A stretch of 28,256 bases of DNA from Chitinophagaceae bacterium (GTDB lineage: Bacteria > Bacteroidota > Bacteroidia > Chitinophagales > Chitinophagaceae), in NCBI GenBank assembly GCA_036383615.1, contig DASVNY010000082.1, forward strand, positions 1-28,256. Reading direction: 5' to 3'. Shown in pieces: positions 21,274-22,198 of this stretch; position 1 is the stretch's first letter; each line of letters starts with the position of its first letter. The position numbers were made by a program, and so were the translations under genes. The notes under the pieces are model-generated. The model worked only from the letters and a program-made list of their open reading frames with translations, had not been told where the DNA came from and did not search any database.

Positions 21274-21304
21274 TAAAAAAGCCTCTCTTATAAAAGAAAG
21301 GCTA
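21274..21304 (-). terminator. Intrinsic terminator downstream of the tRNA-like RNA
   Basis: Stem agcct..tctt-ataa-aaga..aggct, followed on the minus strand by TTTTTTATT. Confidence 0.75.
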
Positions 21305-21328
21305 TACTAATCACATAAGAAAAAAATA

Positions 21329-21403
21329 GCTGTAGGGGGAGGGGTCGAATGCCGACGCTTCGGCCGGCACCGAGACCAGCAAAGCTGCGTCTCGGCCTCC
21401 ACG
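21329..21403 (-). repeat. Tandem duplicate of the tRNA-like RNA 3' end (T-arm and acceptor strand) with a 46-nt double-hairpin insert
   Basis: 21329-21349 is identical to 21408-21428 (21 bp) and 21396-21403 to 21429-21436; the insert is 21350-21395. Confidence 0.88.
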
Positions 21404-21406
21404 AGT

Positions 21407-21581
21407 TGCTGTAGGGGGAGGGGTCGAACCTCCACGGGGCAGTTAGCTGAAGTACAAAGATTAGTGGTCAACCCTGGTCGGCCTTACCAATGGTAACGTC
21501 GGCTCTATACTTCGTTTATCCTGTGATCCCCACCCCCGAGACGAGGGGGCATGTCTGCCAAAAATTTCATCACCCCACAGT
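21407..21581 (-). ncRNA. Atypical tRNA-like RNA (class II/Leu-type scaffold, GUC in the anticodon position, 99-nt variable arm)
   Basis: Acceptor (A)CTGTGGGG / CCCTACAG(C)+A; D-arm ATG-AAATTTTTGGCAGA-CAT; CCCCC-TCGTCTC-GGGGG; variable arm closed by GGGG/CCCC; T-arm GGAGG-TTCGACC-CCTCC; own promoter and terminator. Confidence 0.8.
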
Positions 21582-21617
21582 GTGTATCAATTGTTCTTTT
21601 TTAAGAGCTTGATAAAA

Positions 21618-21625
21618 CAAATATA
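21618..21625 (-). promoter_or_regulatory. -7 promoter box for the tRNA-like RNA
   Basis: TATATTTG on the minus strand, 36 nt upstream of the predicted mature 5' end. Confidence 0.6.
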
Positions 21626-21733: not shown

Positions 21734-22198
21734 ATGGCGGGCAAATTAAATCTTGACAAACTGGATCTCCAGATCATTCATCACATGATGGATAATGCAG
21801 GCATCTCCTATGCTGACCTTGGTAAAAAACTGTTTGTCTCCGGGGGTACTATTCATGTTCGTATCAAAAAACTCCAGGAAGCAGGTATCGTTAAAGGTAC
21901 AAAACTCAATGTTGACCTGAAGCAGTTGGGATATGATGTGATCGCTTTTATCGGTATTTACCTAAAGGAAAGTTCACTCTATGATGCGGTGGCGCGGGAA
22001 CTGCAAAAAATGCCCGAGATCGTCAGGCTTAATTATACCACCGGCAACTATAGCATGTTTGCGGAGATAGTTTGTAAGGATATCTCGCAACTACGTTCGG
22101 TATTGCATGATCAACTGCAAAAAATAAAAGGGATCGAAAGAACCGAAACCTTTATTTCACTGGAAGAAAGCTTTAGCCGGAATGCGAGAGTGATGTAG
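21734..22198 (+). CDS. Lrp/AsnC family transcriptional regulator
   Basis: LDKLDLQII...ISYADLGKKL.VS.GT.H.RIKKL...GIV HTH and a C-terminal RAM domain (YTTGNYSMF, IERTETFISL). Confidence 0.93.
   Translation: MAGKLNLDKLDLQIIHHMMDNAGISYADLGKKLFVSGGTIHVRIKKLQEAGIVKGTKLNVDLKQLGYDVIAFIGIYLKESSLYDAVARELQKMPEIVRLNYTTGNYSMFAEIVCKDISQLRSVLHDQLQKIKGIERTETFISLEESFSRNARVM

Follow-up and report, generated by a model that had tools for sequence, protein, structure and literature searches.

To our knowledge, amino-acid synthesis on transfer RNA (tRNA) is known so far only on tRNAs that also deliver the product to the ribosome. For asparagine the first base pair of the acceptor helix is important: U1-A72 promotes the amidation of Asp-tRNA by bacterial GatCAB, and the G1-C72 pair and U20a of tRNA-Asp prevent it (PMC1635274; PMC9976931). 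Identity is determined mainly by the anticodon triplet, which has C36 in tRNA-Asp, and by the discriminator base (PMC9976931). Why GatCAB is retained in bacteria that have both asparaginyl-tRNA synthetase (AsnRS) and glutaminyl-tRNA synthetase (GlnRS) is a recognised open question (PMC4206432). Here we describe an RNA gene on the minus strand of a stretch of DNA of 28,256 nucleotides (nt) from Chitinophagaceae bacterium (GenBank assembly GCA_036383615.1, contig DASVNY010000082.1), which is referred to as the window. The gene specifies a tRNA-shaped RNA with a giant structured domain in place of the variable arm, it lies head to head with a gene for an AsnC-like regulator, and its relatives in the order Chitinophagales occur together with gatB. 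In our judgement the chances are even that the RNA is an AsnC-controlled, non-decoding carrier working off the ribosome, on which aspartyl-tRNA synthetase (AspRS) would load aspartate and GatCAB would amidate it to asparagine.

The tRNA-like RNA and its family

The minus strand of the window reads as a complete cloverleaf from 21579 to 21408, with a 99-nt structured domain at the position of the variable arm (21434-21532). The initial annotation had described the RNA in this way and the sequence bears out both the description and the coordinates. From U1 to C74 the RNA of mature size is 172 nt long, with position -1 (C) at 21580, and covariance model R1 matches it at 21407-21582 with 198 bits. 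The acceptor helix is formed by UGUGGGG (21573-21579) and CCCUACA (21416-21410), which pair in 7 base pairs (bp), one of them G.U. It is followed by G73 (21409) and C74 (21408); the remaining CA is not encoded, in agreement with the earlier reading that the gene lacks CCA. That reading also gave the acceptor 8 bp. Seven of these pairs stand, and the eighth, C(-1):G73, is possible in the window RNA. A pyrimidine (C or U) precedes U1 in 127 of the 135 distinct homologous sequences on which the counts of invariance and covariation are based, so an eighth pair with G73 can form in most of the family but is not strict.

The other arms are also those of a tRNA. U8 and G9 follow the 5' acceptor strand, the D arm (21551-21570) has a 3-bp AUG/CAU stem and a loop with GG, and some homologues have an extra GNRA hairpin within this loop. 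The anticodon-like arm (21533-21549) consists of a CCCCC/GGGGG stem and the loop UCGUCUC, in which G34, U35 and C36 (21542-21540) are followed by U37 and C38. The T arm (21417-21433) has the sequence GGAGG-UUCGACC-CCUCC with a 5-bp stem. The cloverleaf features of an elongator tRNA, namely a 7-bp acceptor, a 5-bp T stem, U8, A14, G18G19 and the T-loop UUCRA, are all found in the sequence and the alignment. The giant variable-arm domain is made up of helix V1 (GGGG/CCCC), helix V2 (CAG/CUG), a conserved internal loop (GAUAAAC/AGCUAA), the 11-bp stem V3, a variable hairpin A and a conserved hairpin B with the loop GGGUUGACC. Its length is about 40-140 nt across the family, outside the 4-25 nt of elongator tRNAs.

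ARAGORN found no tRNA gene and no transfer-messenger RNA (tmRNA) gene in the window. Rfam 15 gave no match there at gathering scores, and at E<=10 the only matches were chance-level ones to the terminator hairpin. Signal recognition particle RNA, RNase P RNA and every other Rfam family can be set aside for lack of a match, and the earlier statement that the RNA belongs to no named family holds. A full-text search of the literature found no description of the family.

More than 130 homologues were found in Chitinophagales genomes and four more in IMG/VR viral contigs. The full 175-nt unit, arm included, occurs once per genome at 70-87% identity in 20 of the 24 genomes of the home family and is also present in other families of the order. 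An exact 29-nt pattern is found at more than 119 loci, nearly all of them in Chitinophagaceae or Chitinophagales, including the genera Chitinophaga, Niabella, Terrimonas, Ferruginibacter, Hanamia and Sediminibacterium. Chitinophaga pinensis is one of the species in which the RNA is found. Compensatory changes are seen in the acceptor, T, V1, V2, 11-bp V3 and hairpin-B helices. Acceptor pairs 4:69 to 7:66 covary (GU/GC/AU), the T-stem pair 151:165 occurs in five types (GC, AU, UA, GU and CG), and the fifth pair of the anticodon stem (37:47) is UG in 92 sequences, CG in 22 and UA in 21, with zero mismatches. The D stem and the other four of the five anticodon-stem pairs never vary and thus covariation is no proof of those helices; RNAalifold favours an alternative local fold at the D stem and anticodon stem. 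The family is real and is conserved far beyond chance.

Some loci contain the gene two to four times in tandem. Short paralogues of 113-126 nt are also found, in tandem arrangement with copies of full length (L072:35-475, L106:185-316, L126:1504-1638, L066:4033-4168 and L134:3946-4083). In these the cloverleaf is retained, as are V1, V2 and the internal loop (GAUAAAC/GCUAA), and a small hairpin stands in for the remainder of the arm; these paralogues define the minimal conserved arm.

The RNA family is very abundant. Metatranscriptome contigs from four studies map only to 21408-21581 of the window, with a summed depth of up to about 1.2 million in one soil run. The contigs derive from relatives and show the abundance of the family, not the expression of the window copy itself. 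They run through the arm, and the arm is conserved and covaries, which removes the possibility, raised earlier, that the 99-nt region is an intron spliced from a tRNA. Three contigs from one run end in ...GCC at the adapter; the relatives from which they come may encode that C, and the contigs are not decisive for a non-templated CCA.

Identity marks of the acceptor end and anticodon loop

U1-A72, G2-C71, U3-A70, G73, C74, U8 and G9 are the same in all 135 sequences, as are the D-loop GGCAGA and the T-loop UUCGA, and the base following C74 varies. The loop U-Y-G-U-C-U-C, with G34-U35-C36, U37 and C38, is kept throughout except at position 33, where 108 sequences have U, 26 (the window RNA among them) have C and one has G. 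Position 37 is U in 135 of 135 and C in a distant member of the family, G160. The absence of U33 and of purine 37, which had been noticed in the window loop, is confirmed there, and a pyrimidine at position 37 is a property of the whole family; the U33/purine-37 combination of elongator tRNAs is not found. G160 retains U1-A72, G2-C71, G73, C74, GUC and C38, and in it pair 3:70 has changed from U-A to C-G.

In E. coli, aspartate identity is given by G73, G34, U35, C36 and C38. All five are invariant in the family. The tRNA-Asp of the window genome has G1-C72 and G73, and its gene ends in G-C without CCA; the tRNA-Asn of the same genome has U1-A72 and G73. Compared with these two tRNAs, the RNA joins an aspartate anticodon to an asparagine-type acceptor end. 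The first pair of bacterial GatCAB substrates, U1-A72, is present in all 135 sequences. The initial annotation had stressed leucine-type features. It is correct that the nearest ordinary tRNA to model R1 is tRNA-Leu(GAG/CAG), at 30-40 bits, but the identity marks (G73, GUC, C38 and U1-A72) read as Asp/Asn-type and not as Leu-type. Pyrimidine 37 and the 40-140-nt arm argue against decoding, and suggest, together with C33 in 26 of the 135 sequences, that the RNA is non-decoding, as had been proposed.

Co-occurrence with gatB

A fixed sample of 120 near-complete Chitinophagales genomes, which are related and not independent, was searched for the RNA (model R1), gatB, asnS, asnA, the AsnB family, glnS, E. 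coli-type AsnB and the regulator. The RNA was found in 62 genomes, gatB in 100 and GlnRS in 64. gatB is present in 61 of the 62 RNA-positive genomes, the exception being a 96%-complete assembly in 330 contigs, and GlnRS is present in 18 of the 20 genomes that are gatB-negative. When the 64 genomes with GlnRS are divided by gatB, the RNA is present in 43 and not found in 3 of the 46 that have gatB, and is present in 0 and not found in 18 of the 18 that do not. The three genomes with gatB and GlnRS in which the RNA was not found are G207, G248 and G225 (99%, 96% and 96% complete; 250, 370 and 80 contigs). In G207 the contig extends no more than 253 nt upstream of the AsnC start, and an RNA gene may be situated at or past the contig end. 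In families that do not have GlnRS, gatB is retained whether the RNA is there or not, as expected from their need of it for Gln-tRNA. It follows from these counts that GatCAB, where it is not needed for Gln-tRNA or Asn-tRNA, is kept essentially only with the RNA. AsnRS was above the curated cut-off in 100 of the 120 genomes, and the other 20 fell under the E-value limit, probably as split matches. Two forms of AsnRS occur across the families of the order, one giving a contiguous match of about 600 bits and the other a match of about 480 bits that is split by an insertion.

The RNA and gatB have been lost together in separate places, namely in two genera of the home family, in four genomes of family f18, and in one genome each in genera g15 and g16 and family f11. 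In g16, G028 has the RNA and gatB and no asnA, whereas G194 has asnA and neither the RNA nor gatB. Between these two genomes about 290 nt of the spacer beside AsnC is retained at about 90% identity, the similarity stops exactly at the start of the RNA gene, and only the RNA gene is replaced. The same contrast is seen for G275, which has asnA and neither the RNA nor gatB, against four congeners that have the RNA and gatB and no asnA; in two further members of its genus the RNA, gatB and asnA are all present. In genus g39, which does not have GlnRS, asnA is found in the three RNA-less genomes and not in the RNA-positive one, and gatB is found in all four. Of the 120 genomes, 11 have AsnA or E. 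coli-type AsnB, and 8 of these do not have the RNA. E. coli-type AsnB itself is limited to two genomes, both of them without the RNA and without gatB.

The AsnC-like regulator and the transcription unit

The gene that is divergent from the RNA gene (21734-22198, plus strand) codes for an AsnC-like transcription regulator of 154 amino acids with Pfam AsnC_trans_reg and a helix-turn-helix. Its top NCBIfam match is AsnC NF008384 at 164.5 bits, which is below the curated cut-off of 227 bits, and the runner-up family scores 68.5 bits. An AsnC-like gene lies head to head with the RNA gene, 120-370 nt upstream, in 127 of the 130 loci with enough flank. The link to a head-to-head Lrp/AsnC gene that the initial annotation had suspected is thus conserved, and the regulator is specifically AsnC-like. 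It likely controls the RNA gene. There is no conserved downstream gene among the loci, and a MatE gene is found downstream in only 3.

The spacer between the two genes was also compared. In two species of one genus about 290 nt of it is about 90% identical (L185:2029-2330 and L184:2135-2430), and a spacer of about 290 nt beside AsnC is retained even where the RNA gene has been lost; it may hold operator sites or another element. In G236, a genome of family f58 that does not have the RNA, three 56-nt units with a spacing of 125 nt lie near the AsnC homologue (L191:1203-1508) and give weak 12-bit matches to the model.

On the minus strand, a Bacteroidota-type -7 promoter motif (TAnnTTTG), TATATTTG, is located at 21618-21625, 38 nt before U1, which implies a 5' leader. 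Of 131 homologous loci, 69 have an exact TAnnTTTG no more than 90 nt upstream, and it ends 17-74 nt before U1. The transcription unit ends on the same strand (21275-21326) with a T-run (21326-21320) and a hairpin terminator (21302-21275). In 54 of the 131 loci a T-run lies no more than about 17 nt from the 3' end, and several others have a hairpin terminator there. The variable distance of the promoter motifs, and the T-runs or hairpin terminators behind many of the genes, show that the RNA is synthesised with extra sequence at both ends, a leader and a trailer, which processing must remove. The earlier description of a promoter and a terminator that bracket the gene was right about the promoter. 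The terminator of the window does not follow the gene directly, as 80 nt intervene.

These 80 nt (21329-21407, minus strand) are specific to the window genome and consist of a 59-nt two-hairpin insertion (21407-21349) and then a 21-nt repeat (21349-21329), which copies the last 21 nt of the RNA, the segment from the T-loop to C74. They separate the RNA gene from its T-run and terminator; aligned homologues do not have this stretch and have a single 3' end. The inserted element (GAGACGCAGC...GTCTCGG and GCCGRCCRAAGCGTCGGC) sits at the RNA 3' end with a 21-nt target duplication. Similar copies are found in the same genome beside tRNA genes (C549:1291-1338, C347:10860-11017 and C17:1338-1379). 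One copy immediately precedes a tRNA-Val gene, the 5' end of which is duplicated over 12 nt, and two weaker partial matches (28 nt, E 0.42) adjoin a tRNA-Gln/Asp/Glu cluster. The pattern suggests a miniature element with tRNA genes as its targets.

Proposed function and alternatives

The following sequence of events is proposed. Transcription from the promoter of the gene itself would give an RNA with leader and trailer, as the promoter motif and terminator seen in the sequence indicate, and RNase P, 3' trimming and the CCA-adding enzyme would convert the transcript to a tRNA-shaped molecule. AspRS would then charge it with aspartate by way of G73, G34-U35-C36 and C38, and GatCAB would turn the bound aspartate into asparagine, guided by the U1-A72 pair that the RNA has and the real tRNA-Asp does not. 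The giant arm, pyrimidine 37 and perhaps an eighth acceptor pair may hold the RNA off EF-Tu and the ribosome, and asparagine would thereby not be inserted at aspartate codons. The asparagine would be released or passed on from the RNA. In E. coli, AsnC regulates asnA according to asparagine supply, and the divergent AsnC-like regulator may adjust the expression of the RNA gene in the same sense. The broader claim is that the order makes asparagine on a dedicated tRNA-derived RNA outside translation, with a discriminating AspRS to load aspartate, GatCAB to amidate it, an arm that either bars the ribosome or recruits a release activity, and AsnC in control; we put this forward tentatively, as a claim that falls somewhat short of an even chance. 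The initial annotation had listed several functions for a tRNA mimic, and of these the coupling to GatCAB most favours that of an amino-acid carrier or donor; a sensor or decoy is kept as a lower rival.

Several observations weigh against the proposed carrier function. The D loop reads GGCAGA before the 3' strand of the stem, and at the U20a site there is no U and possibly one extra nucleotide, the numbering being ambiguous. Position 10 is an invariant A and not the G10 that AspRS uses in E. coli, where it is a minor determinant. Class II synthetases such as AspRS approach the tRNA from the side of the variable arm, and an arm of 40-140 nt might clash with AspRS. The gatB counts come from related genomes and are not independent samples. 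Three genomes carry the RNA and asnA together. Nearly all genomes, whether RNA-positive or RNA-negative, carry at least one long gene (about 615 amino acids) of the asparagine-synthase family TIGR01536. This family was rejected as a marker of asparagine synthetase, as it is non-discriminating and multi-copy in almost all genomes. Its members may be true asparagine synthetases, so that the RNA need not be the sole route to asparagine.

The regulator and the wider distribution also raise difficulties. In families f4 and f18 the RNA and the AsnC homologue are not neighbours, the latter lying at another place in the genome. An AsnC homologue lies within 3.5 kb of asnA in 0 of nine genomes, which means that asnA has not displaced the RNA in place. 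The four IMG/VR viral contigs carry versions of 146-155 nt, with ordinary tRNA genes nearby on two of them, and there is no AsnC gene on any of the four; copies of the RNA thus stand in viral tRNA arrays without AsnC. A blastn search of INPHARED phages gave no match to the family. The same viral contigs carry further tRNA-shaped RNAs of 124-154 nt (L172:9975-10118, L172:4583-4712 and L173:5945-6104), with the acceptor AGUCAGG/CCUGACU and long inserts, that ARAGORN does not call, and several kinds of tRNA-like RNA with giant arms may exist in the phages of these bacteria. In other classes of the phylum, GlnRS and gatB occur without a match to model R1 in about 30 genomes, and a recheck of five of these with laxer filters returned ordinary tRNAs only. 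A gatB rule for the whole phylum fails with model R1, and the rule is shown only for the order and its nearest relatives. By analogy with Bdellovibrio, which uses tRNA-Asn with a non-discriminating AspRS (PMC4206432), the genomes of other classes may use tRNA-Asn in the same way.

Two alternatives keep the tRNA-like shape of the RNA and change its purpose. The first is that the RNA donates aspartate or asparagine to something outside both translation and the supply of free asparagine, for example in the modification of lipids, of peptide natural products or of a component of the envelope, with GatCAB only preparing the aminoacyl group. The shape, the identity marks and the gatB coupling would be the same as for the carrier, the AsnB-family genes in RNA-positive genomes would be less puzzling, and dedicated non-proteinogenic tRNAs do serve as donors in cell-wall synthesis. 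However, no transferase gene is conserved alongside, AsnC being the only conserved neighbour, and the replacement of a lost RNA by asnA or E. coli-type AsnB points to free asparagine. A donor of this kind is improbable.

The second alternative, to which we give a similarly low probability, is that the RNA regulates by mimicking a tRNA. As such it could report on the charging status of Asp or Asn, or could act as a decoy or sponge that binds AspRS, GatCAB, AsnRS or a nuclease directed at tRNAs, and could tune asparagine metabolism or protect tRNA-Asp and tRNA-Asn without being a carrier of product. The conserved neighbouring regulator and the very high abundance suit such a role, the phage copies lie in tRNA arrays where decoys for anticodon nucleases make sense, and an invariant loop with U37 suits recognition without decoding. 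A decoy, however, leaves unexplained both the invariant acceptor end (U1-A72, G73 and C74) and the loss of gatB alongside the RNA in genomes that have GlnRS.

It is very unlikely that the RNA decodes codons as a tRNA whose variable arm is extreme, be it a special tRNA-Asp or one for recoding. The full cloverleaf, the GUC anticodon and the canonical U8, GG and T-loop speak for this, and phage copies are found among ordinary tRNA genes, but the invariant pyrimidine 37, the C33 of 26 of the 135 sequences and the size of the arm are against it. In addition, U1-A72 would expose bound aspartate to amidation and lead to misincorporation of asparagine. A normal tRNA-Asp(GUC) is encoded in the same genome, on contig C347, and the idea that the RNA is the only tRNA-Asp of the genome was rejected for this reason. 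A decayed pseudogene, which the initial annotation had named as the outcome if homologues, covariation and transcripts were lacking, or a functionless remnant of an integration site can be dismissed as hardly credible: the 3' end in the window is duplicated around a small insertion, as at attachment sites of mobile elements, but that duplication is private to the window genome and the RNA shows full-length conservation with compensatory changes throughout the order and outside it, is flanked by a promoter and a terminator of its own, and is found in large amounts in RNA libraries.

If the carrier function is correct, it would answer why many bacteria with AsnRS and GlnRS retain GatCAB (PMC4206432). 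A separate, regulated and highly expressed RNA scaffold for this chemistry would be a new use of the tRNA fold and a new class of housekeeping RNA, one that genome annotation now misses. The 40-140-nt arm with its invariant internal loops is a new structured RNA domain.

Comparison with known systems

Several bacterial RNAs have the shape of a tRNA, are seen by the processing or charging machinery and work outside decoding. These include the tRNA-like domain of tmRNA, the pseudo-tRNA tRNA-Other of Bacillus cereus, and bacterial YrlA. The present RNA has no sequence or Rfam relationship to any of them, and in contrast to tmRNA and YrlA it keeps all four arms and adds a new domain. It is not tmRNA, since RF00023 has no match at the locus and relatives carry a separate tmRNA of 370 nt. 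It was also compared with 6S RNA. The models RF00013 and RF01685 do not match at the locus and the covarying helices form a cloverleaf; the model search is a weak test, as neither model matches anywhere in the window genome or in relatives G002, G009, G012 and G020, and RF01685 found none in control genomes either. The 6S RNA of these Chitinophagaceae, if there is any, is unannotated.

In tRNA-Sec and allo-tRNAs the acceptor and T helices have 8/5, 8/4 or 9/3 bp, and the 8/5 geometry of tRNA-Sec keeps that tRNA away from EF-Tu. The RNA may share with tRNA-Sec a 13-bp stack of the acceptor and T stems if Y(-1):G73 forms, which the sequence allows in 127 of the 135, and both have a long extra arm. 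However, the arm of the RNA is far larger, the eighth pair is not strict, the anticodon is GUC and not UCA, and there is no 6-bp D stem; identity as tRNA-Sec was rejected on these grounds. The RNA resembles class II tRNAs, especially tRNA-Leu, in its D arm, which combines a stem of 3 bp with a large GG-containing loop, and in the extra arm that emerges between the anticodon arm and the T arm. It differs from them in that this arm is branched, is four to ten times as long and contains conserved internal loops, its discriminator is G and not A, and positions 33 and 37 are not tRNA-like. It is also missed by ARAGORN and the Rfam tRNA models.

The closest functional comparison is with the tRNA-Asn of tRNA-dependent asparagine synthesis, in which a non-discriminating AspRS and GatCAB act in the transamidosome of Thermus, Deinococcus and Bdellovibrio. 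U1-A72 and G73 are common to both RNAs, both occur alongside GatCAB where AsnRS and GlnRS are already present, and the chemistry from aspartate to asparagine is presumed to be the same. In contrast to tRNA-Asn, the anticodon of the RNA is GUC, for aspartate, and not GUU, so that a discriminating AspRS could charge it. The RNA further differs from tRNA-Asn in its 40-140-nt arm, its pyrimidine 37 and its own AsnC-linked transcription unit, and it probably works outside translation.

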